Of a stretch of 64,000 nt of DNA, positions 5,257-61,910 are shown piece by piece. Both the position numbers and the translations under genes were made by a program. The DNA lies in NCBI GenBank assembly GCA_044224525.1, contig JBGAKI010000001.1:12917-76916 (forward strand). The letters run 5' to 3'. Numbering within the stretch: the stretch's first letter is position 1; each line of letters opens with the position of its first letter. Below the pieces are notes generated by a model. It was not told the DNA's origin. It did no database searches and was given only the letters and a program-made list of their open reading frames with translations. The stretch is from Polyangiales bacterium. Its GTDB lineage: Bacteria > Myxococcota_A > Polyangia > Polyangiales > CBDCBC01.

Positions 5257-5940
5257 TCAAAGTGGCACATGCGCAAGCCGAATGCTCTCGTTACCCTCGA
5301 GAAGCTTGGCCAGTTCGCGCAGCGGCGCAGCATCAGCGATCACAATGCGATCACTTTCAAGCGTCAGATAGCCCTTGTCGCGCAATTGCCCGACCACCTG
5401 TTTCACCTCATCCACATGCAATACCAAATGGCTCGATAGCTCCACCGGGGTCAAGGTGAGCGCTTGGCCATTGCTAACCTTTTCGGCGGTGTGCAGCATT
5501 TGCACTAAGCCACGCACAATGCGCAGCGACGCATTTTGCACCAACATGTTTTCAAGCTGCTCTTCGGCATAACGCAAGCGCTCCACCAACTGCGACACCA
5601 GCGTCATCGCCACTTCAACGTTGCTCGCCATCAAATCGGTGAGCGTGCTGCGATGCAGCGCCAGCACCGACACATCCGAAAGCGCCACCGCCGAGTTACG
5701 CCGTTTGGCTTCTTCAAACCAAGCCTCGTCACCAAAGAGCTCGCCCGCTTTCAATACGCGCAAGCTATACGTCGAATCGCCATTTTTCACGATCAGCTGC
5801 ACGCGCCCACTTTGCAGCAAAAAACAATCATTCGCCGCATCGCCCTGCTCATAAATGGTCGCTCGCGCTGAAAACGTCTTGCCGTAGCGCCGAATCAGCC
5901 GACTAAGCTCATCGGTTTCGGGGTATTCCGAGACACTCAT
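5257..5940 (-). CDS. Crp/Fnr family transcriptional regulator
   Basis: cNMP-binding domain (GELFGDEA...RRNSAVA) plus C-terminal HTH. Confidence 0.9.
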   Translation of the reverse strand: MSVSEYPETDELSRLIRRYGKTFSARATIYEQGDAANDCFLLQSGRVQLIVKNGDSTYSLRVLKAGELFGDEAWFEEAKRRNSAVALSDVSVLALHRSTLTDLMASNVEVAMTLVSQLVERLRYAEEQLENMLVQNASLRIVRGLVQMLHTAEKVSNGQALTLTPVELSSHLVLHVDEVKQVVGQLRDKGYLTLESDRIVIADAAPLRELAKLLEGNESIRLAHVPL

Positions 5941-5963
5941 GGCTTATTCATAGCGCGGGTCAC

Positions 5964-5994
5964 CCCCAAAAACCAAAGACTTTGTATAAGCCGA
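5964..5994 (+). repeat. 31-bp direct repeat, copy 1 (left island boundary; probable IS4 left-end sequence)
   Basis: ccccaaaaaccaaagactttgtataagccga identical to 12801-12831, similarity continues ~13 bp further. Confidence 0.9.
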
Positions 5995-6074
5995 GGCTTA
6001 AGAAGAATGGTTGCCCATACATCGATTTCAAAAGAAATATCACCAAGAGTCGTTAGGCTGGCTTTTGGTGGGAA

Positions 6075-6428
6075 ACACGTCTAGCCACTGTAATCGCGTC
6101 CGTCGAAACGCTACTGGTGGGCAAGCGGCTTACGCTTACCGCAATCGGCCGCAGTTTAGCGATGCGCTCTGCATGCTTTGCTAAACACAGCATCAAGCGT
6201 ATTGACCGCTTACTTGGCAATCGCCTTTTGCATAAAGAGCTGCCGATGTATTGGAAGTCACGAAGTCATGCACTCATTGCGCAGCAAAGTAGGCCACTTA
6301 TTCTCGTCGACTGGACACAGATAGCGCCTTACAGCGCGCGATGGGCGCTCGTAGCAAGCATCGCATTCAAAGGACGAGCCGCGCCCATCTATGCGCAAGT
6401 GTATCCTGAGCATCGCCAAGCCAAGTAG
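6075..6428 (+). pseudogene. IS4-family (IS10-like) transposase N-terminal fragment
   Basis: RLTLTAIGRS...KHSIKRIDRLLGN...LILVDWT...LVASIAFKGRAAPIY; in-frame stop upstream, truncated at 6428 where MITE-like sequence starts. Confidence 0.85.
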
Positions 6429-6474
6429 TCCCATGATCAAGGTCTGCCCAAGTAGTCCCATGATCGAGGTCTGC
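6421..6474 (+). repeat. 27-bp tandem duplication containing a MITE left end
   Basis: ccaagtagtcccatgatc(a/g)aggtctgc twice. Confidence 0.9.
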
Positions 6475-6617
6475 AAGCGAAATGATATTGGTTGCTTATC
6501 AAGCAGAGCGCTATTTTCCAGGTGGCGCTAGCTCTTCTTTTATCCAAACCAAAAACCGCGCTTAATCTTACAACCTATTGAAATTCTTGGTCCGAAAATG
6601 CCAGACATGGGAGCTAG
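6453..6617. mobile_element. MITE-like element A (TCCCATG...CATGGGA ends)
   Basis: Left end tagtcccatgatc, right end catgggagctag; left portion resembles element at 8006-8150. Confidence 0.6.
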
Positions 6618-6740
6618 TCTTCTTAGCGAAGACAGTAACCACTGAGTTAAGCCTATCGGGCCCGCTTTTCCGCTAATTTTCTGCCTCTGGCTTCCGATCA
6701 ACATTCGGTTTGACCAGGTACCCTGTTCGATACATATTGG

Positions 6741-7994
6741 TTGATGCGCAACTTGGCTTTTTTATGTTTAGGGCTGGTTTTAGGCTGCTCGGCTCAATCA
6801 CAAACGCTTGTCGACAGCCAGGCGCCGGTAAAGGATAAACAAGGCGTTGGTCACGCTAACAGCGTGGCGATTTTCCTTTACGACCTTCATAGCGAGGGCA
6901 TGGCTTCGCCCTTGGTTCCATTAGCATCGGGCACAATTATCGGACACTCGCTTTATACTGCGCGGCACACTGTGAGAGATGTTATCAGTAGCCTGCAAGA
7001 TAACGATTTGTGTTTGGTTTTTAACCAGGCGCCGCAACGCTATTACTGCGTGACGGAGGATGCGATCAACTTTCATTCCCACGTCGCGCAGCGACAAGGG
7101 AAAACAGAGCGCTACTATTATGTGGTGTACGACAACACAGTAACTAGAAACAATCACACAAAAATTTTTTCAGAGCGGGTCACGCTTAGCGATGTTGGCG
7201 ATGTTCGTGTGGTTGACCCGATGGAGAATCACGCCGGCCCACAAAATAATGTTAGTGATGAACAAAGCTACGCTTACGGTGAAAGTTATGATGGGGCGCG
7301 CATTGACTTTGCGCGCGATTGGTCGGATGTGTTAGAGGAAAGTGGGCTCAAAAAGCTGGAGCCCTTAGACCTTGCAGATTCACCACCTGGCGCTGGAGCA
7401 TGGATTAATGGCTCGCGCGACACAAGTACGTACTCCACCACTATCGATTCAGGTAGAACCAAGCCCTTATCAGCCACTGTTCAACAGCCGGTTACCATCG
7501 AGCATTATTCCAGTTCGATGCTAGAGCAGTTTCAAATCTTTTCACTTAAACAAACATTTGACGATTTACTGAACGAAGATGTCAGCGAAGCAACTCAAGA
7601 TGCCTTTTCTGCCTTTACACAAGACGAAGCGAATCTTTTGCCTATCGATGGTGGCGATTCGGGCGGCGGACTACTAATCATAGAAAACGGTATGTGGAAG
7701 CTGGCTGGCATCGTGTCGGGTTTTCCGTGCCTGCCCACAAGCGCCGATCAAGATGCGGTGCCGAACCTTAACCTCTACAAAAAGAAATGGAATGCTCTTA
7801 AGGTTTATCGCCCCACCACATATGCGTATATACAGAACAAGCTAGAAGGGCAAAAAGACGCACAAGGCAAGCTTGATGCAAATACTGTAGTGTGTATGAA
7901 CCAATACACGCGCGCCGATAAGAACAGCGACCTTGGTAAATGGTTTTTGACCATTGAAACTATCTCCCATGATCTACCCGCATTATCTGAATGA
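6741..7994 (+). CDS. Trypsin-like (S1) serine protease lipoprotein
   Basis: Lipobox VLGC; YTARH (His), YDGARI (candidate Asp), GGDSGGGL (Ser), WKLAGIVS. Confidence 0.8.
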   Translation: MMRNLAFLCLGLVLGCSAQSQTLVDSQAPVKDKQGVGHANSVAIFLYDLHSEGMASPLVPLASGTIIGHSLYTARHTVRDVISSLQDNDLCLVFNQAPQRYYCVTEDAINFHSHVAQRQGKTERYYYVVYDNTVTRNNHTKIFSERVTLSDVGDVRVVDPMENHAGPQNNVSDEQSYAYGESYDGARIDFARDWSDVLEESGLKKLEPLDLADSPPGAGAWINGSRDTSTYSTTIDSGRTKPLSATVQQPVTIEHYSSSMLEQFQIFSLKQTFDDLLNEDVSEATQDAFSAFTQDEANLLPIDGGDSGGGLLIIENGMWKLAGIVSGFPCLPTSADQDAVPNLNLYKKKWNALKVYRPTTYAYIQNKLEGQKDAQGKLDANTVVCMNQYTRADKNSDLGKWFLTIETISHDLPALSE

Positions 7995-8005
7995 AACACC
8001 GACTA

Positions 8006-8150
8006 GCTCCCATGATCTAGCCTTAGAAGATCAATGATTTTTGGTGGTTGCAGGCGTAACGCTGTTTAACTGCAAATGCGAAATAACAAGACAGCGTTGC
8101 GCCTGTAAGCTTACCATTTTATTGAGCTAATACGGGTAGATCATGGGAGC
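8006..8150. mobile_element. MITE-like element B, 145 bp with 14-bp perfect terminal inverted repeats
   Basis: gctcccatgatcta ... tagatcatgggagc; an additional copy of its right end lies inverted at 7964-7996. Confidence 0.75.
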
Positions 8151-8206
8151 GTTTTCGCGCTCTATCCGTCTTCGTTATCGTTTGCAATGTCGAGCGCGAA
8201 ACAACG

Positions 8207-9658
8207 CTACTGAACAGCGATTTTGCGTTCGCCTATCGTCTGACGATTTGCGTCAGAGTCGATTGCCACAACTTCTAACAAGTGAGCACACGATGACCAG
8301 TTTGTTGTATCGAGTGTTGCTTTGAACCCTGCGTTCGGGCACCCTTTATAGTTGGGATAAAGAGCACATACATCGCTGCGATTTTCAGTTGGAGCAAGTG
8401 TGTCAATACTCACGCCATCGATCAGCAACTCAAGCCGCACATCGGTGCGATTGTCTAGCACCCAACCTTGTATGTTTAGCGGTTCTCCAGCACCAATGCT
8501 TGTTTCTACAAGTGGACTGTCGAGTTCGCCAAACGGTGCGCGCTTTGCAATCAAGGCGTCAAACCGTTCTTTGATGTGATCGTAATCACCAAGCGCAATA
8601 TATGCGCGTCCTCTCACTGTCGCTTTGCTTGCTAGAGCAAAAGGAAACTGAGGCCTAACGCTATGAAAGTAAGGTGCTTTTGATCCATCACCGCCAATAC
8701 CACGAAACTTGGCGAACATTTGATCCATCGCAATGCCCATGCCGTATTTTTGCGCAGGTTGCGTCCAAGCAACCCAACCGTTCTTTGAGTTGAAGTCGGA
8801 ATATTCTGCGCCACTCTTAGCTTGAGTATTTAGTTCAATGCGTTTTCCTTCTGAATCAAACAATCTGTCTAGGTCTAAACCGCTAGCGTTGTTTGCTACA
8901 TATAGCGTCGGAAACTCTTGCTCTGTTTCGACATGGTTCATGTCTTCATCATTTACAACTTCCATCGAAATCTCAACGACATCTGATTCAACAAAGCGAA
9001 ATCGCAGTTTGAATGTAACACCAACATCTTTTAGTGGTTCGCTGCAACCATCATTCTCGCAAGTTGGCGATTTCCAATCGGGGTTCCACTGCCTCGGTTT
9101 AACAATTATTTCTAAGGCATCGTCATCGCGAACTTCGTCGTTGATATTGCTACCGGTAACTTTGCCACCTCGATTGCACTCGTCGCCACCCTGAACGGGA
9201 TTCCATCCTAAATAGGTAATTGATGCGTCACACACTCTATCAGGCGGTTTGCACGATGCATCATAAGCGCAGCCCTGAAACAAACGACTGTTGTCATAAA
9301 TAGCTATTTGCAGCTCTCTACCTGTGTCGTTTGCATCTATCGTATTTCTTGCCGGTTCATATTTGTCGCCAAAAAAAACCACAGAGCCGCCCCATTCTTT
9401 GCGAATGCCGATTTGCGCATCCGAGATGGGGCTCTTTAAGAAAATATCGGTGAACCCACCACGGTTTCGTTTAATAATTGTGGCGGGGCCAGCACTCGGC
9501 AGTTGCATGCGCCACGCATCAAGTGCCTTAACGGGCTCGCGGGGCAGGCATGATTCGCCTACCTTGTCATCGACCTGGATAACCTTGCTGCTTTCGTTGT
9601 CACAACAGACCCATGTGCAGGCGATATGGAGTGTTAAGAAAAGCCTGATGTAAGCCAC
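8207..9658 (-). CDS. Secreted hypothetical protein with C-terminal Ig-like domain
   Basis: 483-aa ORF, signal/lipobox-like N-terminus, C-terminal PFGELDSP...GWVLD...RSDVC...GF...LEVVAID beta-sandwich pattern. Confidence 0.7.
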   Translation of the reverse strand: MAYIRLFLTLHIACTWVCCDNESSKVIQVDDKVGESCLPREPVKALDAWRMQLPSAGPATIIKRNRGGFTDIFLKSPISDAQIGIRKEWGGSVVFFGDKYEPARNTIDANDTGRELQIAIYDNSRLFQGCAYDASCKPPDRVCDASITYLGWNPVQGGDECNRGGKVTGSNINDEVRDDDALEIIVKPRQWNPDWKSPTCENDGCSEPLKDVGVTFKLRFRFVESDVVEISMEVVNDEDMNHVETEQEFPTLYVANNASGLDLDRLFDSEGKRIELNTQAKSGAEYSDFNSKNGWVAWTQPAQKYGMGIAMDQMFAKFRGIGGDGSKAPYFHSVRPQFPFALASKATVRGRAYIALGDYDHIKERFDALIAKRAPFGELDSPLVETSIGAGEPLNIQGWVLDNRTDVRLELLIDGVSIDTLAPTENRSDVCALYPNYKGCPNAGFKATLDTTNWSSCAHLLEVVAIDSDANRQTIGERKIAVQ

Positions 9659-9783
9659 TAATCTAGTTTAACGCAAAACTGGCAAGCGCAAAGTGATAAA
9701 AAAGCACTCAGCTTCTTGCCAAAGAGCGAGGGCGCCGCTGCTGGCTATACGGGCGCCCAAGACGACAAGCCCCGCCAAAGCTG

Positions 9784-10218
9784 GTGCCTGCGCCGTATTT
9801 TCATATGACCCGCTACTACGGAGTGTTTGCCCCGAACGCCGCGCTGAGAAAGCAGGTCATCTTAAAGCTGGCCACGCAGCAGCCTGTACAACTTGTTTTG
9901 TTTGAAGACGCTACAGAAGGCGAGGGCGCAGCTGGCACTTGTACTGGCGCCCAAGACGACAAGCCTGGCCGCACAAAGCGCCAGCGTATTGCATGGGGCA
10001 AGCTGCTAGCCAGAGTGTTCAAGGTCGATGTGAGCGTGTGCGCTAAGTGCAAGGGTGTGATGCGCATTAGCGAAGTGGTGACTACGCGTGACGACATTGA
10101 GGCTGTGCTTGGTCATAAGGGCAAAGGCGGCAAACACAGCCGCGCTGGGCCAAGCGCGCTGAACTTGCCAAACGCCAGCGATGAGCAAGGCGCGCAGCTG
10201 AGCTTGATGCTGATGTAA
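9784..10218 (+). pseudogene. IS91/ISCR-family transposase C-terminal fragment
   Basis: VPAPYFHMTRYYGVFAPN and WGKLLARVFKVDVSVCAKCKGVMRI motifs; N-terminal and HUH part missing. Confidence 0.85.
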
Positions 10219-10276
10219 GCGCCCCCCAAAGACAGGGCCCGCATAAACAAAAGCGACAAGCCCAAGGGCGGGGTGC

Positions 10277-10444
10277 GTGCAAAACACGAGAAAAAAACGT
10301 CAAAAAAGCTTAGTGCACTGGCCTAAAGTCCATGCAGTGCAAATCGCAACTCACATCGCGCGCTTGAATCCGAAAAACAACGACCCGCCCGGCCGCACGA
10401 ACTGAGCGAAAACTCAAAAAAACCGAGTTTGAACCTCCTATACG
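10277..10444 (+). mobile_element. IS91/ISCR oriIS-like right end, copy 1
   Basis: Downstream of the transposase fragment; ends tttgaacctcctatacg, resembling the ISCR oriIS terminus (TTGAACTTCCTATAC). Confidence 0.75.
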
Positions 10445-10513
10445 CTCCCATCGACATTCATTTGGCGCTTGCAGATGACTTGAACTTCATGACTTATGTG
10501 ATACATCAGAGGA

Positions 10514-11197
10514 GTGAAAAAGAAGCTTGTATTAGGTTTTTGCTTATTTTTATGCGTTGAAGCAAAGCAGTATAGTGTCGCTGCAGGCGGGCCACCTCCA
10601 TCGCCGACAGATCCAGAGCGCAGTTTTTATTGTGGAAAGGTAGGCAATCCATTTCCCGATGAAGGAGGCTGTACGTATTACGTCGCCTTAGATGTAAGCA
10701 GGTTGTGTAAGCAGATTGCTGATGACACTGTTGCGTATCTGCGTGCATCTACCAAGCCGGTGTATGAAGATTCTTCTATCGAAGGAATAGAAAGTTTCTT
10801 TGATGACATACTAACCAATGAAACTGATAGAGTTGAGGTGTATTCGCATAGAGTTCAAACTAGTACCGAGCTTATTGACGTAAATAAGATTGATAACGAC
10901 GGGGCGCTTAAAAAATACTGGCCCGGACCACAAAAGGCATTTGATAACTATACTAAAATACAATCCTTTACTTATGACCCTGTGGGTGGTCGTATGCTTG
11001 CTAGTTTTGGTTTGACGAAAAAGGATCCAAACAAGATGAGCGATTGGACTAATCCAGATGAAGTGGAAGAATGCCCGTCATTTTTTTCAGGTGGAGCTCA
11101 GCTAAGCGGAATTCAAAAGTATATGCTCAAAGAATTTTTTTATGGGCCATATTACACCGCGATGGAATATATCGCTGCGCACTATGCTTGCCAATAG
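10514..11197 (+). CDS. Secreted hypothetical protein with conserved Cys pattern (probable paralog of 50289-50867)
   Basis: GAGGA RBS, signal peptide, AT-rich; lies between two oriIS-like copies. Confidence 0.75.
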   Translation: MKKKLVLGFCLFLCVEAKQYSVAAGGPPPSPTDPERSFYCGKVGNPFPDEGGCTYYVALDVSRLCKQIADDTVAYLRASTKPVYEDSSIEGIESFFDDILTNETDRVEVYSHRVQTSTELIDVNKIDNDGALKKYWPGPQKAFDNYTKIQSFTYDPVGGRMLASFGLTKKDPNKMSDWTNPDEVEECPSFFSGGAQLSGIQKYMLKEFFYGPYYTAMEYIAAHYACQ

Positions 11198-11298
11198 CAC
11201 GATCGATTGAACAATAGGTCAGAGGTCAACTTTCTTGGCATGAAGAAGTCCGTTCTTGAAAACTACAACGCAAGTCTCTTGTATTTACTTTAGGTGCA

Positions 11299-11465
11299 GT
11301 GCAAAACACGAGTAAAAAACGTCAAAAAAGCTTAGTGCACTGGCCTAAAGTCCATGCAGTGCAAATCGCAACGCACATCGTGCGCTTGAATACGAAAAAC
11401 AACGACCCGCCCGGCCGCACGAACTGAGCGAAAACTCAAAAAGCCGTATTTGATTTTCCTATACG
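11299..11465 (+). mobile_element. IS91/ISCR oriIS-like right end, copy 2
   Basis: ~167-bp near-identical direct repeat of 10277-10444, ends tttgattttcctatacg. Confidence 0.8.
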
Positions 11466-11624
11466 TCGACCAAGTGTAACGAGGCTTATGCGAGAGTTAT
11501 GAATGACACGGTGGGCAGCATTTTCTGAAACGCAAGCTACCACACTAAAACACGGCGCCGCTATTGCTGATTCTTAAACAACAGTTAGCGAAGGTGAGGG
11601 CCAAGTCTCAACTTTTAACCCTGC

Positions 11625-12743
11625 TTAGTATGGTTGGGTCTTGAGCATACAGGATGCACTTTCGCAATATGCGAGCTCGAGAAACTCGCGACGCCAAGCG
11701 AGTACATTGGTATAAGTCGATTCCGACGCATAAATATTCGAGAAGTCGGTTACCTTTTTTTGGTCTCGTAGATAATAAAAAACTCGATCGACATATCGAC
11801 TGAGCCTCTCGTCGAGTACACGCCGCGTAATACAAAATAGCTCATTATTTCCAACCAGAATGGTGTCAACATTACTCAGCGTTCCGATGACTTCAATGAC
11901 GCCGTCGCGTGTCGTAAAAAGCGGCCCTCCAGAGTCTCCATGCTGAACAAAAGTGCCCAACTCGGTCAAACAAAGAAAAGATGGCTCGTCTAGTTGATCA
12001 TAAGAAAAAATCCGCAGTGGTGCCCCTGCAAGTTCAAACTCTACGCGAGGGTCAACAAGATCTCCATCATCGAGCGCTCGAGTAAAGGTTGTTTGTCGAT
12101 CATATGGCTGGTTCTCTCCAGCATTATACGTCGCCCCAGCGATCTTATAATCTTGTGATGCATCGTAAGTCTTAAGACTTACATCTAAGAGATTTGTAAG
12201 CGCCGGCGTCCCGTCTTGCAGTTTGATGTTTTGAAATTGCGTTGGCCATACTACAAGACCTTTATCATACCATCCCGACAGTGGAATCACTTCTCCTATA
12301 TCATGCGTAAAATAAGAGGGATCTTTGTACATGTGTGTATCGTCTTTTTCGGAGCAAAAAACCAACTCAGGGTGTTGGTTTGCAGCAAGACAAATGCACG
12401 AAATATTTGCTTCGTTTTCATAGGCCGCAATGACATGCGCAGACGTTAGTAACGATGATCGAGTCGGACCCATCAAAGTGGCTGTTCCTAAAAAGACTGG
12501 AATCTTTTCGACGTTTACTATCTCAGCAACCTCGTCTATTGTAGTCGGGCACGCACCATCGTTCTTTTTTGCAGTTCCGTAGAGTGCAACTACGTTCGCG
12601 AGCGCGGGCTCTGTCGCCAGAGTATCCGAGCTTGGTTTATGGATAGCGCTTTGACGCTCTTGTATCTCGTCATGACCGCTGCAAGCCGCCACAACAAGCC
12701 ACCACGCTGCTAGCGCTGCCGCCCGTAAACTAAGATAAGACAT
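11625..12743 (-). CDS. Trypsin-like (S1) serine protease lipoprotein (start at MSYLSL inferred)
   Basis: Lipobox VAAC; LLTSAH (His), YDKGLV (candidate Asp), HGDSGGPL (Ser). Confidence 0.8.
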   Translation of the reverse strand: MSYLSLRAAALAAWWLVVAACSGHDEIQERQSAIHKPSSDTLATEPALANVVALYGTAKKNDGACPTTIDEVAEIVNVEKIPVFLGTATLMGPTRSSLLTSAHVIAAYENEANISCICLAANQHPELVFCSEKDDTHMYKDPSYFTHDIGEVIPLSGWYDKGLVVWPTQFQNIKLQDGTPALTNLLDVSLKTYDASQDYKIAGATYNAGENQPYDRQTTFTRALDDGDLVDPRVEFELAGAPLRIFSYDQLDEPSFLCLTELGTFVQHGDSGGPLFTTRDGVIEVIGTLSNVDTILVGNNELFCITRRVLDERLSRYVDRVFYYLRDQKKVTDFSNIYASESTYTNVLAWRREFLELAYCESASCMLKTQPY

Positions 12744-12800
12744 AACTAAGGCTAAAATTATAGCTGAAAAAAGAATGCGGTCGAGCGAGAAAATAATTCG

Positions 12801-12831
12801 CCCCAAAAACCAAAGACTTTGTATAAGCCGA
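12801..12831 (+). repeat. 31-bp direct repeat, copy 2 (right island boundary)
   Basis: Identical to 5964-5994. Confidence 0.9.
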
Positions 12832-12872
12832 TGCTCGAGAAGAACGACGGCCTATAGCTTGGTGCACCGCAC

Positions 12873-13850
12873 TTAGCTTGCCAAGTGACACGCGGCAAAA
12901 TGTCCGGGGGTCAGTTCGCGCAGCTCGGGTACTTTGACATCACACAGCCCTTTTTCAGCGATCGGGCAACGCGGATGAAACGTGCAACCAGGTGGCGGTG
13001 AAATGGGGTTGGGAATTTCGCCCGCGATTACCAAACGTTTGCGTTCGGTCGTTGGGTCGGGGATCGGCACCGCATCGAGCAACGCGCGTGTATATGGGTG
13101 CTTAGGTGTGGAATAAAGTGCTTCGGTGGGCCCTTGTTCAACAATGCTGCCCAGATACATCACCGCCACGCGATTGCTAAGATGGTGCACCACGCGCAAA
13201 TCGTGCGAGATAAATACGTAGCTCAAACCAACTTGCTCTTTTAGATCACTCAGCAAATTAATAATTTGCGCCTGAATCGACACATCAAGCGCACTTACCG
13301 CTTCATCCGCGACGATAAGCTCCGGATTCACCGCCAAGGCGCGCGCAATGCCGATGCGCTGGCGTTGCCCGCCGCTGAACGCATGTGGGTAACGCTCCAC
13401 TGTGTCCGCCGCGAGACCCACGCGTTCTAGCAATGACACCGATTTTTCGCGCGCCTCTTTGCGCGACTTCACCAGCTTATGCACAATCAACACTTCGCGC
13501 AGCGTTTGCCCAATGGTCATACGCGGGTTGAGCGACGAATAGGGGTCTTGAAATATGATTTGCGCTTTGCGTCTAAACTTGATCAGTTCTTTTTGACGCT
13601 GCTTGGTAATGTCGGTGCCATCAAAGAGCACTTGCCCGGTGGTGGGTTCATGCAGCCTCAGCGCAACCCGCGCAAACGTGCTTTTGCCGCACCCCGACTC
13701 GCCCACAAGCCCCAGCACTTCGCCGCGCTCAAGCCGCACGTTCACATCTTTCAAGGCGCGCAGCGTCTGCTTGGCGCGGCCAAATAAGTTGCGCTTCACC
13801 ACAAAGGTTTTGCTGAGGCCACGCGTTTCAAGAATTGGCGCTTCAGCCAT
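12873..13850 (-). CDS. Oligopeptide/dipeptide ABC transporter ATP-binding protein (OppF/DppF-like)
   Basis: GESGCGKS, FSGGQRQR, DEAVSALD, C-terminal GCTFHPRCP...ACH. Confidence 0.93.
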   Translation of the reverse strand: MAEAPILETRGLSKTFVVKRNLFGRAKQTLRALKDVNVRLERGEVLGLVGESGCGKSTFARVALRLHEPTTGQVLFDGTDITKQRQKELIKFRRKAQIIFQDPYSSLNPRMTIGQTLREVLIVHKLVKSRKEAREKSVSLLERVGLAADTVERYPHAFSGGQRQRIGIARALAVNPELIVADEAVSALDVSIQAQIINLLSDLKEQVGLSYVFISHDLRVVHHLSNRVAVMYLGSIVEQGPTEALYSTPKHPYTRALLDAVPIPDPTTERKRLVIAGEIPNPISPPPGCTFHPRCPIAEKGLCDVKVPELRELTPGHFAACHLAS

Positions 13851-25643: not shown

Positions 25644-25652
25644 CTAATAGTT

Positions 25653-25680
25653 GGTGACATGCACTTTAGTGCGTGTCACC
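25653..25680. repeat. 28-bp REP-like palindrome
   Basis: ggtgacatgcactttagtgcgtgtcacc; identical copy at 61883. Confidence 0.9.
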
Positions 25681-32766: not shown

Positions 32767-32898
32767 AGCATCATCAACCCCTCGAATGGCCGCGGCGCAT
32801 CATGGTTGGTGTCATAGGTCGTGATGACTCGCAACCCGCGCGGCCCAAGCGGCCCAAGCGTACGCAAATGCCAGTCTGTGGGGCCGCTAAGGCTCCGA

Positions 32899-32926
32899 GG
32901 TGACTCGCACGAAAGTGCATGTCACC
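32899..32926. repeat. 28-bp REP-like palindrome
   Basis: ggtgactcgcacgaaagtgcatgtcacc (reverse-orientation variant). Confidence 0.85.
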
Positions 32927-32971
32927 TGACTTAGGTTTGACAGATGAGCCTGCTTTGCTAGTTTGGGCCTC

Positions 32972-33058
32972 GGAGAGCTGGCCGAGTGGTCGAAGGCGCT
33001 TGATTCGAAATCAAGTGTGCCCGTGAGGGTACCATGGGTTCGAATCCCATGCTCTCCG
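32972..33058 (+). tRNA. tRNA-Ser(CGA), CCA not encoded
   Basis: GGAGAGC/GCTCTCC acceptor, CTTGA-TTCGAAA-TCAAG anticodon arm; TTGACA-16 nt-TAGTTT promoter from 32937. Confidence 0.95.
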
Positions 33059-33064
33059 CTAGCC

Positions 33065-33092
33065 GGTGACATGCACTGTGGTGCGTGTCACC
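33065..33092. repeat. 28-bp REP-like palindrome between two tRNA-Ser genes
   Basis: ggtgacatgcactgtggtgcgtgtcacc. Confidence 0.88.
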
Positions 33093-33100
33093 TCCGTTTA

Positions 33101-33191
33101 GGAGAGATGACCGAGCGGTCGAAGGTGCACGACTGGAAATCGTGTGTGCCCCAAAAGGGTACCGAGGGTTCGAATCCCTCTCTCTCCGCCA
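33101..33191 (+). tRNA. tRNA-Ser(GGA)
   Basis: GGAGAGA/TCTCTCC acceptor, CACGA-CTGGAAA-TCGTG anticodon arm, encoded CCA. Confidence 0.96.
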
Positions 33192-33192
33192 G

Positions 33193-33888
33193 ATGCGCTG
33201 GATCGTTATCACAATGGTCGGCTTCGTCAGCACGTGCACACGTGTGGATCAGAACAACTTGCTTGAAACGGCAGTTTACGATGTAGGTGTGGAGTGGCTG
33301 CGCAGCTGCCCAAGCGATGCGCCGCGTTATGCGGCCAAATATCCTGATGGCTGTTACCTTGAGAGATCAGCCCACATCAGAAAGTGCGACACCTTCGCCA
33401 CATTTTTCCAGACCCACGAGATACCTGTCCTCAAGACAGTGATTGCGCGCGCCGAGCAGGATTATCTTTCCAGCTTAGGTGGTGTTGCAGGTCCCCCCAA
33501 GGACCTTTTCCTCAGTGGCCTGATCGATATCGAACACCAAATCATGTATTCGATCTTGCCGCGTCAGATCGATCCGCGCAGCGCATTCTTTCAAAACGTC
33601 GGTCGCCATTCAGGACTGCACTTGGACTGGAACGCGGAACCTGAGGAAGTCTACCGCGATCGTTTATCGTTTCGCGTGTTGCTTCACAAAGGCGAGTGCG
33701 AGCCAACCGACGGCGCATCAAATGCCGCGAACCCTTTTATGACGGGTTCTGAACGTGACCGTTTTGACGAAGCGACGCGTGCTTTCGTTTGGCGATTTTA
33801 TGAACGCGTTTTTGATCGATTGATCGAACAAATCAAAGAGCTTTGCGGTGGCGATGTCGCGATTTCCTATGATCGCTCAGCAACCTAG
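33193..33888 (+). CDS. Hypothetical secreted/lipoprotein (possible paralog of 54926-55732)
   Basis: In-frame ATG just after the tRNA CCA gives an MRWIVITMVGFVSTC signal-like N-terminus. Confidence 0.65.
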   Translation: MRWIVITMVGFVSTCTRVDQNNLLETAVYDVGVEWLRSCPSDAPRYAAKYPDGCYLERSAHIRKCDTFATFFQTHEIPVLKTVIARAEQDYLSSLGGVAGPPKDLFLSGLIDIEHQIMYSILPRQIDPRSAFFQNVGRHSGLHLDWNAEPEEVYRDRLSFRVLLHKGECEPTDGASNAANPFMTGSERDRFDEATRAFVWRFYERVFDRLIEQIKELCGGDVAISYDRSAT

Positions 33889-40005: not shown

Positions 40006-41451
40006 ATGTCTTACGAGTCACCCGCAGACACACCTCTGTCAAACCAAGCGCCTAGCGTAGTCGTTATTGGCGCTGGCATTTCTGGGCTCAGCGCTGCGTA
40101 CACAATCACACAAACCTTGCCACACGTTCACGTTCATGTGCTTGAAGGTCAAACGCGTGCAGGGGGCTGGGTGCACACAGAACGCGACGACCATCATGTG
40201 ATCGAGCACGGTCCTGATTCGCTTGTGACCGATGATGCCGAGGTATTTGATTTTGTGCGCGAGCTTGGGTTAATGCCCAGCGTTGTGCCCACCAACGCTG
40301 GCATGCGGCGGCTTTACGTAGTCATCAACAAGACCCTCAAACGCGTGCCTGCGGGCTATCATATGGTCGCTCCCAAACAGTTGCCGGGTTTTTTGTCGAG
40401 CGACGTGCTGAGCCTGGGCGCCAAATTGCGCGCCATTGCTGAACCCTTCATCTCGCATAAAGAGATGCTATCAGCTGCCGATGAAAGTGTCGCGAGCTAC
40501 TTGATCGACCGCATGGGTTTAGAACTATACAAGACCTTATCTGAACCGATGATTCGCGGCGTTTATGGTGGTGATCCACGCACCCTTAGCTTGAAAGCCA
40601 TCTTTCCCGACTACGCGCAGCTTCGCGATCGTAAACAAAGTCTTTTGCGTTCGATGTTAAAAACCGAACGCTCAACAGCACACGCCGCGACGGGTGCCAA
40701 CTATGGAAAGTTCATTAGTTTTCGCGCGGGCATGGCAGAATTGATCGAAGCCTTAACGACCCGTCTTGCACGTAACCTTCGTTACGAACAACAGATCGAG
40801 CAAATCGAATACAGCTCAAGCGCGCGCTCATGGAAAGTCCATCTAAACAACGGGCAAACGCTGCACGCGCATGGTCTTGTAGTGGCCACATCAGCTTTTA
40901 CGGCCGCGAATTTGTTAGCGCCTCATGCCCGCGCGTTAAGCGAGCATCTAAACGCCATACCTTACGGCTCGATGCTTGCGGTCAGTTATCTGTATAACAA
41001 CGATGCATTAGATCGTGCGCTTGATGCATTCGGGTTCATTGTGCCCAAGGCCGAAAACCTGCATCTGCTTGCCTCCACCTGGTCAAGTGTGAAATACGCA
41101 GGCCGCGCCGCGCTCCAAGAAAGTTTGTTGCGCGTTTATTTATCCGACCGCGAAAACGAGGCAACGTCGTTATATGACATGAATGATGAGGCCATTGAGG
41201 CACTTGCGCGCAAAGAGCTGAACATGATCATTAACACGCGTGGTGAACCACTACGAAAGCGTGTACTGCGATTTGTCAAAGCCATGCCCCAATATACACT
41301 TGGACATGTCGAACGCGTGCAAGCGATTCATCGCGAACTAGAGGCTTTTCCAACCTTAAAGCTATGTGGCAATGCCTATGAAGGCGTAGGCATTGCAGCA
41401 TCCATTAAACTCGCGCGCCGCGAGGCCAAGGCGCTTTGTGCATCGCTTTAG
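40006..41451 (+). CDS. hemY: Protoporphyrinogen/coproporphyrinogen oxidase (HemY)
   Basis: IGAGISGLSAA, EHGPDS, AMPQYTLGH, GNAYEGVGI; follows hemE. Confidence 0.92.
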   Translation: MSYESPADTPLSNQAPSVVVIGAGISGLSAAYTITQTLPHVHVHVLEGQTRAGGWVHTERDDHHVIEHGPDSLVTDDAEVFDFVRELGLMPSVVPTNAGMRRLYVVINKTLKRVPAGYHMVAPKQLPGFLSSDVLSLGAKLRAIAEPFISHKEMLSAADESVASYLIDRMGLELYKTLSEPMIRGVYGGDPRTLSLKAIFPDYAQLRDRKQSLLRSMLKTERSTAHAATGANYGKFISFRAGMAELIEALTTRLARNLRYEQQIEQIEYSSSARSWKVHLNNGQTLHAHGLVVATSAFTAANLLAPHARALSEHLNAIPYGSMLAVSYLYNNDALDRALDAFGFIVPKAENLHLLASTWSSVKYAGRAALQESLLRVYLSDRENEATSLYDMNDEAIEALARKELNMIINTRGEPLRKRVLRFVKAMPQYTLGHVERVQAIHRELEAFPTLKLCGNAYEGVGIAASIKLARREAKALCASL

Positions 41452-41612
41452 AGCAAAGAGAAATTGAGTTGAGGTGGTCTGGGGGAGGTCAAACAGTAGC
41501 GAACGATTCGCGAAGCCGAAGGCGTAGCGCATCCGCGGCGCGTAGCGGCGCGACAACGAGCGAGCGGGTTTGGCCTGCCCAGACCACCTCAACTCAACTT
41601 CTCTTTGCTCTA
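41449..41612. mobile_element. MITE-like element, 164 bp with ~45-bp near-perfect terminal inverted repeats
   Basis: tagagcaaagagaa(a/g)ttgagttgaggtggtctggg arms; leading TAG is the hemY stop. Confidence 0.8.
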
Positions 41613-50288: not shown

Positions 50289-50867
50289 GTGCGCGTAAAC
50301 TTCGTCTTACTCACCTTATCACTGCTTGCCGGTTGTGATCAGCGCCAAACGCTTGCAGAAGACATAAGCGCTCAGAACGCCGTATTCGCCTGCGGAGCGT
50401 ACAACGAGCGCCTTCAGTTTAATGAGCGACCGAGTGGAGATTGCAGTGTGATCGACCCTGTTGTACTAAGCCATGCATTATGTCCCGAGCTCCTCAAGGA
50501 TCGCGATATTGCTCGAGAACTTGCTCACTTCACCTCGACATATCAACCACCCTGGCAGTTCAACGATGCCATCACAACCATTCTAAATAGAAAGAACCTC
50601 GAAGATAGGAAAGGTCTACTGCTCTCCCTCTACTCGGAAGGTAAAGAAGGGTGGATCTACGATTTGTACTACTCGGGCCCCGAAAGTAGAACCCTAACAC
50701 TTGGTTCGGGCCTTACCCAATACATCTCTCAAACCACCTGCCCAGAATGGTTCAAGGACTCGACCTCCGAGCAGCGCGAAACCTTGGCCAAGGGTTGGCA
50801 CGAACAGAACAACCCCTTCAAAGGTTTGTTCAAACTTCTCGCCGAGCGCGCCTACCTTTGCGACTAA
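50289..50867 (+). CDS. Hypothetical lipoprotein (probable paralog of 10514-11197)
   Basis: Lipobox LAGC; conserved Cys spacing; TGCTACACT extended -10 6 nt before GTG. Confidence 0.78.
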   Translation: MRVNFVLLTLSLLAGCDQRQTLAEDISAQNAVFACGAYNERLQFNERPSGDCSVIDPVVLSHALCPELLKDRDIARELAHFTSTYQPPWQFNDAITTILNRKNLEDRKGLLLSLYSEGKEGWIYDLYYSGPESRTLTLGSGLTQYISQTTCPEWFKDSTSEQRETLAKGWHEQNNPFKGLFKLLAERAYLCD

Positions 50868-61814: not shown

Positions 61815-61841
61815 TTCGTCCTTTTGTCAGCGGATCAATAA

Positions 61842-61910
61842 GGTGACACGCACTAAAGTGCATGTCACCAGAAGGGCGTGAAGGTGACATGCACTTTAGT
61901 GCGTGTCACC
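61842..61910. repeat. Inverted doublet of the 28-bp REP-like palindrome (BIME-like)
   Basis: 61842-61869 is the exact reverse complement of 61883-61910; half-site at 61933-61941. Confidence 0.9.

Follow-up and report, generated by a model that had tools for sequence, protein, structure and literature searches.

A probable remnant of an ISCR-type rolling-circle composite around one foreign-looking secreted-protein gene in a Polyangiales bacterium

A gene for a predicted secreted protein in a Polyangiales bacterium lies between two co-oriented ends of the oriIS type. We interpret the arrangement, with a probability of about 0.6, as the remnant of an ISCR-type rolling-circle composite that likely once carried the gene into the chromosome and is now probably immobile. 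This reading builds on the oriIS identity of both repeats, the broken transposase, an island missing from a relative, and foreign composition; capture and transfer would follow from the known behavior of the transposase family. All positions refer to the window, which is the whole stretch of 64,000 nucleotides that was analyzed.

The first-pass annotation had described a near-identical repeat of ~167 bp next to an IS91 transposase fragment, with exactly one gene between its copies. The repeat was confirmed and its true extent was slightly longer, 174 to 175 nt, at 10271-10445 and 11292-11466. The copies are spaced 1,022 nt apart and showed 93% identity, with 13 of 175 columns differing (BLAST E of 2e-68 between the copies within the 3.3-Mb genome). 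The initial 144 nt were 97% identical, the longest exact stretch common to both copies was 59 nt, and 8 of the 13 differences fell in the final 30 columns (hypergeometric p of ~2e-4, for a span picked after looking). Copy 1 starts 53 nt past the stop (10218) of a 144-codon ISCR-type open reading frame, as had been claimed. The sole gene-sized open reading frame between the copies is 10514-11197 (227 aa), overlapped by an 80-aa frame on the opposite strand. It lies 69 nt from the tip of copy 1 and 94 nt from copy 2.

In run X1, possibly the source sample, a contig of 953 nt starts within copy 1, covers the whole gene and ends within copy 2, with zero differences from the window. Because this contig crosses both junctions without change, the ori-gene-ori arrangement is real and not an assembly artefact. 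In contigs from a second study, parts of the cargo gene and the flank of copy 2 were also present and unchanged. The assembly is a short-read one in 146 contigs and a 59-nt identical stretch can mislead assemblers at k = 31, which would allow the second copy to be a product of mis-assembly or of a local tandem duplication. However, 13 columns differ between the copies, the tip of copy 2 resembles a different element (on contig C120), and the junctions or the cargo recur unchanged in the contigs of X1 and the second study. An origin by duplication or mis-assembly is thus disfavored and highly improbable.

The open reading frame next to copy 1 is the 3' stub of an ISCR/IS91-family transposase gene (9782-10218, plus strand), comprising the last 144 codons with neither an HUH motif nor a zinc domain. 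The stub matched positions 387 to 496 of 509 of the ISCR clade Ia model NF052416 (E of 3.8e-17), a score far under the whole-protein cut-off of that model, and it covers only positions 355 to 466 of 469 of a whole-transposase profile. It was 75% identical at the amino acid level to the protein of the C120 element, which itself matched PF04986 (E of 1e-20), thereby indicating homology of the stub to the IS91/ISCR HUH-family transposases. The loci of the best transposase matches carry the titles Myxococcales or Polyangiales.

The oriIS region of copy 1 (10219-10445, plus strand) measures 227 nt from stop to tip and contains the repeated part and a subterminal hairpin. Copy 2 (11292-11466, plus strand) is truncated on its 5' side, at a point 53 nt downstream of where the transposase stop would be. 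The stop-to-tip distance of 227 nt compares with 232 nt in ISCR1 and 235 nt in ISCR2, with near-identical terminal motifs, and the figure of 232 bp for ISCR1 is also given in excerpts of a published account (PMC6218425). In genome G137, five copies of an intact relative shared 182 nt after the stop and then diverged just beyond the terminal motif; in G002, five copies of another shared 216 to 218 nt and diverged at the same point. Both genomes belong to the same order, and their elements are ~50% identical to P0002, an intact close homologue. An end at ~180 to 260 nt downstream of tnpA with a conserved terminal motif was thus found here as well. Because the tip motif and the stop distance agree with those of ISCR1, ISCR2 and the intact relatives, both repeat copies are, as judged by sequence, ISCR-type oriIS ends, and the proposal that the repeat is an IS91/ISCR oriIS end was borne out. 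The exact tip was placed to within a base or two. A hairpin was predicted in both tips, in differing registers. The final 20 nt of copy 2 matched the C120 element at 18 of 20 positions and copy 1 at 14 of 20, and this C120-like tip makes the repeat pair look mosaic. The sequences after the six whole ori tips of the genome differed, as did the flanks of the five identical G137 copies. A search for outward promoters found three promoter-like sites in 10200-11640 against 1.8 expected, none of them inside either ori, and an Rfam search of 5900-12900 gave no match.

With regard to a reading as an integron cassette array, the repeat is accounted for as oriIS; two PF00589 matches of ~305 aa were present in the assembly. 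As a separate observation, the ori regions of one lineage among the outside loci (L032 to L040, L020/L050 and L107) contained attC-like pieces when inspected by eye, and some of these elements carried a tandem copy of the final 42 to 79 nt of the ori end.

No live element was found in the genome (3.3 Mb, 99% complete). Counted with weaker pieces, the assembly held 11 ISCR relics on six contigs, four of which were weak (E of 1e-7 to 5e-3). On contig C13, a stretch of 25 kb (38954-64420) holds five relics, all on the same strand and with mostly secreted-type orphan genes between them; they form a decayed array. The longest transposase, on C120, lacks profile positions 26 to 160; neither an intact transposase nor a match to the zinc-domain family PF14319 was found in the assembly. 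At the locus itself, no terIS was found upstream of tnpA: similarity to the C120 element ends at 9782 and 9723, and the 5' region of that element is unmatched. Since the whole transposase and terIS are missing, the locus is a broken, decayed relic and is not counted as an ISCR element. A short piece of a second ISCR transposase gene (9723-9792, plus strand) was 89% identical to the C120 element and 80% identical to the neighboring stub. The supply of transposase in trans, which the first-pass annotation had assumed, found no source in the assembly, from which a repeated element could be absent because of the short reads; an unassembled copy is possible. A diverged sister sequence over the stub was present in run X1 and may stem from other organisms. 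When the locus was searched at the DNA level against 40 relatives, only short transposase matches in three of them came up, and a single-protein scan of the genome contigs gave no match. Traces of other insertion sequences, among the families searched, were few: one IS4 stub, one rve match and two Y1 transposases.

The unit sits in a low-GC island of 6.9 kb (5964-12856). A repeat search of the window showed that the island is edged by a direct repeat of 44 to 56 nt (left copy 5964-6019, right copy 12801-12856, both plus strand) with no further copy anywhere in the genome; from its place upstream of an IS4 stub, the left copy is possibly an IS4-type left end. In genome G007, the crp-like gene and the ABC gene that flank the island are separated by 25 nt, indicating that the island is missing there. 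The two flanks did not occur together in the other four genomes compared. The island contains an IS4-family transposase 5' stub (6117-6428, plus strand; positions 1 to 95 of 340 of NF033591, E of 4.6e-21), followed by a low-GC trypsin-like secreted-type gene with a GDSGG motif (6741-7994, plus strand; no Pfam match) and a secreted-type gene of 483 aa (8207-9658, minus strand), in which a weak Ig-like C-terminal match (Big_7, E of 0.042) was below the cut-off. A second low-GC trypsin-like secreted-type gene (11625-12806, minus strand; Trypsin_2 at E of 0.0065, below the cut-off) lies 159 nt from copy 2. Between the two is a frameshifted 5' remnant of a GNAT acetyltransferase gene (11467-11577, minus strand), which we take as the insertion flank: its first codons stand directly right of tip 2, as if cut by an insertion end. 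The remnant showed 72% DNA identity to C5:1907-2020, and 14 of 17 amino acids were identical to the C5 protein, which matched PF13302. The rest of the GNAT gene was not found left of the stub, which counts against a composite.

Minor features were also seen in the island. In run X2, a second strain ~3.5% diverged over 11467-11813 carried one additional base at 11513 in the GNAT remnant. A long imperfect hairpin (7959-8150) and short tandem copies (~6425-6470) have a 9-nt motif in common. Pieces related to these two were also present on C13 and C56.

The cargo gene (10514-11197, plus strand) encodes a protein with a six-cysteine pattern and an N terminus that, judged by eye, resembles a signal peptide. 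No outside homologue was found among 1.84 billion representatives, in Pfam or in NCBIfam, and there was no usable Atlas match. Neither phmmer nor tblastn gave a significant pairwise paralogue; the best credible pairwise match was C5:279-866 (z of 5.2, 0 of 300 shuffles scoring as high). A family profile was iterated over 1,527 open reading frames of 130 to 360 aa, yielding 56 members at E < 1e-3. With the cargo and 50289-50867 both held out, these two scored E of 1.9e-6 and 5e-4 against the 56-member family in the last round, in which the best reversed decoy reached 0.083. Across seven rounds, the held-out E ranged from 9.7e-9 to 1.1e-3 for the cargo and moved from 4.4 to 5e-4 for 50289-50867, and the best reversed decoys lay between 0.0029 and 1.1. 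Several of the seeds had first come to light through profiles that contained the cargo, and a profile led by cysteine spacing can drift; the family size of 58 is therefore approximate. The distant paralogue that had been reported in the window was recovered by profile (50289-50867, plus strand) and not in pairwise comparison, where it gave z of -0.8 and 254 of 300 shuffles scored equally high. It lies 39 kb from any ISCR relic.

Members of the family are 180 to 330 aa long, predicted to be secreted, and spread across many contigs (L152 to L190), often as tandem pairs. An alignment of 57 members showed two invariant and three nearly invariant cysteines, with 10 to 23% identity to the cargo. The family profile had no match in 120 relatives and three hits in a set of 5.8 billion, all of them proteins of this genome; one weak Pfam match was found in 1 of 57 members, no PDB sequence scored below E of 0.3, and the Atlas gave leads of less than 0.9 only, for one other member. 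Structure models of the cargo reached a pLDDT of 38.7 from the single sequence and 57.7 (pTM 0.51) from 57 aligned rows. Foldseek found nothing at E ≤ 0.001 and the best VIA-align match had a Z of 5.1 (rmsd 4.1, 74 aligned). Such models and fold searches carry no information on fold novelty and gave no function, and the most that can be inferred is a disulfide-bonded secreted protein of a fast-diverging repertoire. A literature search, with most subscription papers outside its reach, found nothing on this protein family or on ISCR-borne secreted proteins in Myxococcota. Further candidates were seen just under the threshold, such as 33085-33888 with E of 0.005 to 0.024 in the last two rounds.

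The cargo had a GC content of 0.423 and a GC3 of 0.368, the lowest of the 58 family members (medians 0.513 and 0.539), and its GC was among the two lowest of 2,138 genes of at least 200 aa. The gene is compositionally foreign and likely from another bacterium, low GC being an indirect sign of movement, and its description as cargo-like was upheld.

These observations can be assembled into a capture model that follows the published behavior of the family. According to excerpts of one study (PMC13181058), IS91-type transfer starts at oriIS, ends at terIS with 1 to 14% read-through, and can be driven in trans. Given this direction from oriIS to terIS, transfer from copy 2 would proceed to the left, across the gene and then the first element. 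Nicking by an HUH transposase at the copy-2 tip would start copying in that direction; since the cut copy 2 has no terIS, transfer would run on past the gene and copy 1 until it met the terIS of the first element, which was then still intact, and the gene outside ori 1 would thus be turned into internal cargo. That the hairpin tips differ points to contributions from two sister elements: a second one may have inserted, with a deletion afterwards, or a circle bearing the gene may have been rescued by homologous recombination into the resident ori. Later deletions would have taken terIS and most of tnpA, and the one event still open to the locus would be recombination of the RecA type between the repeats, with loss of the 1,022-nt unit. 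The oriIS identity of the repeats, the recurrence of the layout at other loci, the composition of the cargo, the island and the GNAT gene cut at tip 2 support this composite, as do two published precedents seen in excerpts, namely capture by two sequential oriIS (PMC12772301) and rescue of a circle by recombination (PMC7707992, on the circle and homologous recombination model of Toleman 2006 for repeated ISCR-gene units). Against it, no donor copy of the cargo is known, so that its capture cannot be traced.

The same layout was found elsewhere. We fetched 78 loci with a transposase alignment; 76 had a C-terminal match and 61, which are not independent of one another, offered 1 kb or more of downstream sequence. 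In 8 of these 61 (7 of 31 non-ISCR2 loci and 1 of 30 ISCR2 loci), that sequence held a direct copy that was 5'-cut or consisted of the ori only, three of the eight being ori-only, and three further loci had a full extra copy. Additional ori-bearing copies were direct in 17 cases and inverted in 2. Locus L091 has the order intact element, two genes, ori, one gene, ori, and suits a test for live ori-gene-ori units better than the window locus does. Its two ori-only copies (stop at 11446, +1 to +4622) were 99% identical, each closing one or two whole genes. Separately, a replication-strand rule for orientation was considered and rejected, since the skew signs were opposite inside and outside the genome: the GC skew of the transposase-sense strand was negative on five of the six contigs of this genome and positive in 40 of 49 outside loci, a count inflated by shared cargo around ISCR2.

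Both the mechanism and the layout are already known; the host and the type of cargo are new. The layout resembles the ISCR28-armA and ISCR28-sul4 "sandwich". As described in PMC12772301 (citing Yuan 2024), the gene there is flanked by an ISCR28 remnant that contributes an additional oriIS, and capture via the two sequential oriIS is proposed. The window locus agrees with that definition, as a single gene is enclosed by two oriIS in the same direction, of which one belongs to a remnant. In contrast to ISCR28, both elements here are broken, terIS is gone, and the cargo is a chromosomal orphan secreted-type gene of a small-genome myxobacterium and not a resistance determinant. ISCR1 of complex class 1 integrons and ISCR2 (ISVsa3) share the terminal motif, the stop-to-tip distance and a gene directly outside the ori end. 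However, they belong to a separate transposase lineage, the intact close relative P0002 being 37 to 40% identical to both. Also unlike ISCR1, no integron context was seen at the window locus and no outward sigma-70-type promoter was found in its ori region (compared with excerpts of PMC6218425). The one-ended elements IS91, IS801 and IS1294 have in common with this locus the HUH family (by PF04986 in the sister element), a subterminal palindrome in oriIS and no terminal inverted repeats, none being seen here. The locus differs from them in its lack of a terIS and may also differ in its target, as no fixed tetranucleotide was visible after the six tips or the five G137 copies.

The first-pass annotation had gone further and proposed a minimal cassette that could be excised or amplified in trans. 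In such a self-contained cassette, a transposase acting in trans would nick both ori tips and free or amplify a circle of ~1.02 kb with the gene and one ori, which could reinsert beside other ori ends and build arrays. Co-oriented ori-gene-ori arrays do exist (L091 and the C13 array), both tips retain a hairpin, a mini-IS91 retaining 82 bp at its ori end is mobile when transposase is given in trans (excerpts of PMC13181058), and one contig lacks the gene. However, it is terIS and not a second oriIS that terminates transfer in the same source, and there was neither an intact transposase nor a second cargo copy in the assembly. The left edges of cut copies varied from -771 to +33 relative to the stop, with +53 for copy 2 here, and hence there is no fixed cassette boundary; a fixed left boundary at a GGTGC-like motif, which the window locus and L102 had suggested, was rejected on the same edges. 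With regard to amplification, contig depth in X1, which is a poor measure, was similar over the cargo (6.4) and the flanks (7.1 to 8.2).

The contig without the gene came from one of seven runs compared, six of which were of low depth. This single 448-nt contig of run X3 (depth 2.49) joins 10291 to 11314 with 59 nt fitting both sides, the omitted stretch being exactly 1,022 nt long. After a cut from tip to tip, the tip of copy 1 would remain on the flank, whereas the joined contig keeps the tip of copy 2 and crosses within the 59-nt identical stretch. Its shape agrees with a product of recombination, or with a state that preceded a recombination-type insertion, and not with a two-tip cut. In a read simulation with five settings at low depth, for which read length and insert size were assumed, the join arose in 1.4 to 6.6% of runs without a cargo-less allele, in 1.6 to 6.8% with 20% of it and in 5 to 52% with it alone. 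Because the simulation yields the join without such an allele, the join is not evidence by itself, and the contig was rejected as proof of excision, chimeric assembly explaining it equally well. The predicted circle excised by transposase was therefore not borne out, and we consider the cassette improbable.

Another alternative is that the gene came by a different route and that sister ISCR copies inserted separately on either side of it in a tolerant island and decayed from their 5' ends, the ori ends never having moved the gene. Such a history would fit the other debris of the island (the IS4 stub and the third ISCR piece), as expected of a passive hot spot, as well as the differing tips and the decay of every relic in the genome. 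Independent insertions could be co-oriented by strand bias, which may also explain part of the co-orientation that we attribute to the composite, and 56 of the 58 family members lie farther than 2.5 kb from any relic. However, the first 144 nt of the two copies are more alike (97%) than the other relics of the genome are to this stretch (~68 to 80%), their ends hug one intact gene, the layout recurs beside intact elements, and relics are enriched at the lowest-GC genes. Passive insertion is thus a possible account but an unlikely one, and the decayed composite is preferred.

The enrichment also bears on the claim that rolling-circle transfer had spread the secreted-protein family. Only the cargo among the 58 family members was within 1.5 kb of a relic, compared with 27 of 2,766 genes overall, and the counts within 2.5 kb were 2 of 58 and 42 of 2,766. 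Because only this one member lies within 1.5 kb, ISCR did not spread the cysteine-patterned family, and the claim failed. A weaker form of it is suggested by composition. Among genes of at least 200 aa, 7 of 32 with GC below 0.47 were within 2.5 kb of a relic, compared with 29 of 2,041 with GC of at least 0.49 and 5 of 65 between. The genome also encodes ~17 highly diverged trypsin-like paralogues with the GDSGG motif (in the window, on C13, C120 and C128, and on others); the six near relics had the lowest GC of all. Five of the 17 had a relic within 1.5 kb, compared with 10 of 168 low-GC genes of similar length (p of 0.0025), although all these comparisons were made after the pattern had been seen, with thresholds set after looking, and cover about five loci. 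The relics thus appear to mark the lowest-GC, probably most recently acquired secreted-type genes. Together with the low GC of the cargo, this suggests recent import; the pattern fits import beside ISCR ends and also a shared liking for islands. As a tentative extension, which we consider rather unlikely, the ori ends may serve as a standing entry port for new secreted proteins, at which co-oriented, ori-bounded single-gene units are added and lost by recombination, feeding the ~58-member cysteine and the 17-member trypsin-like repertoires with foreign alleles.

The locus alone is a modest finding, since resistance genes have already been described in this layout, which also occurs fairly often next to ISCR elements from the environment. 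It gives a hint that ISCR capture also feeds secreted proteins other than resistance determinants to an uncultured myxobacterium and that relics tag its most foreign-looking genes. It also provides a minimal natural substrate (a 175-nt ori, a gene and an ori) for asking whether a second oriIS can end transfer. The secreted family of ~58 members, present in this genome and in 0 of 120 relatives, may merit more attention than the repeat.

Two other repeated elements were observed in the window. A palindromic MITE-like element of ~160 nt (41449-41612) occurs at ~89 loci on 56 contigs and flanks some of the family genes. A REP-like palindrome of 28 to 33 nt (25648-25680, 32894-33092 and 61837-61910) occurs at ~66 loci on 37 contigs, and the two Y1 transposases, on C138 and C55, might serve it.
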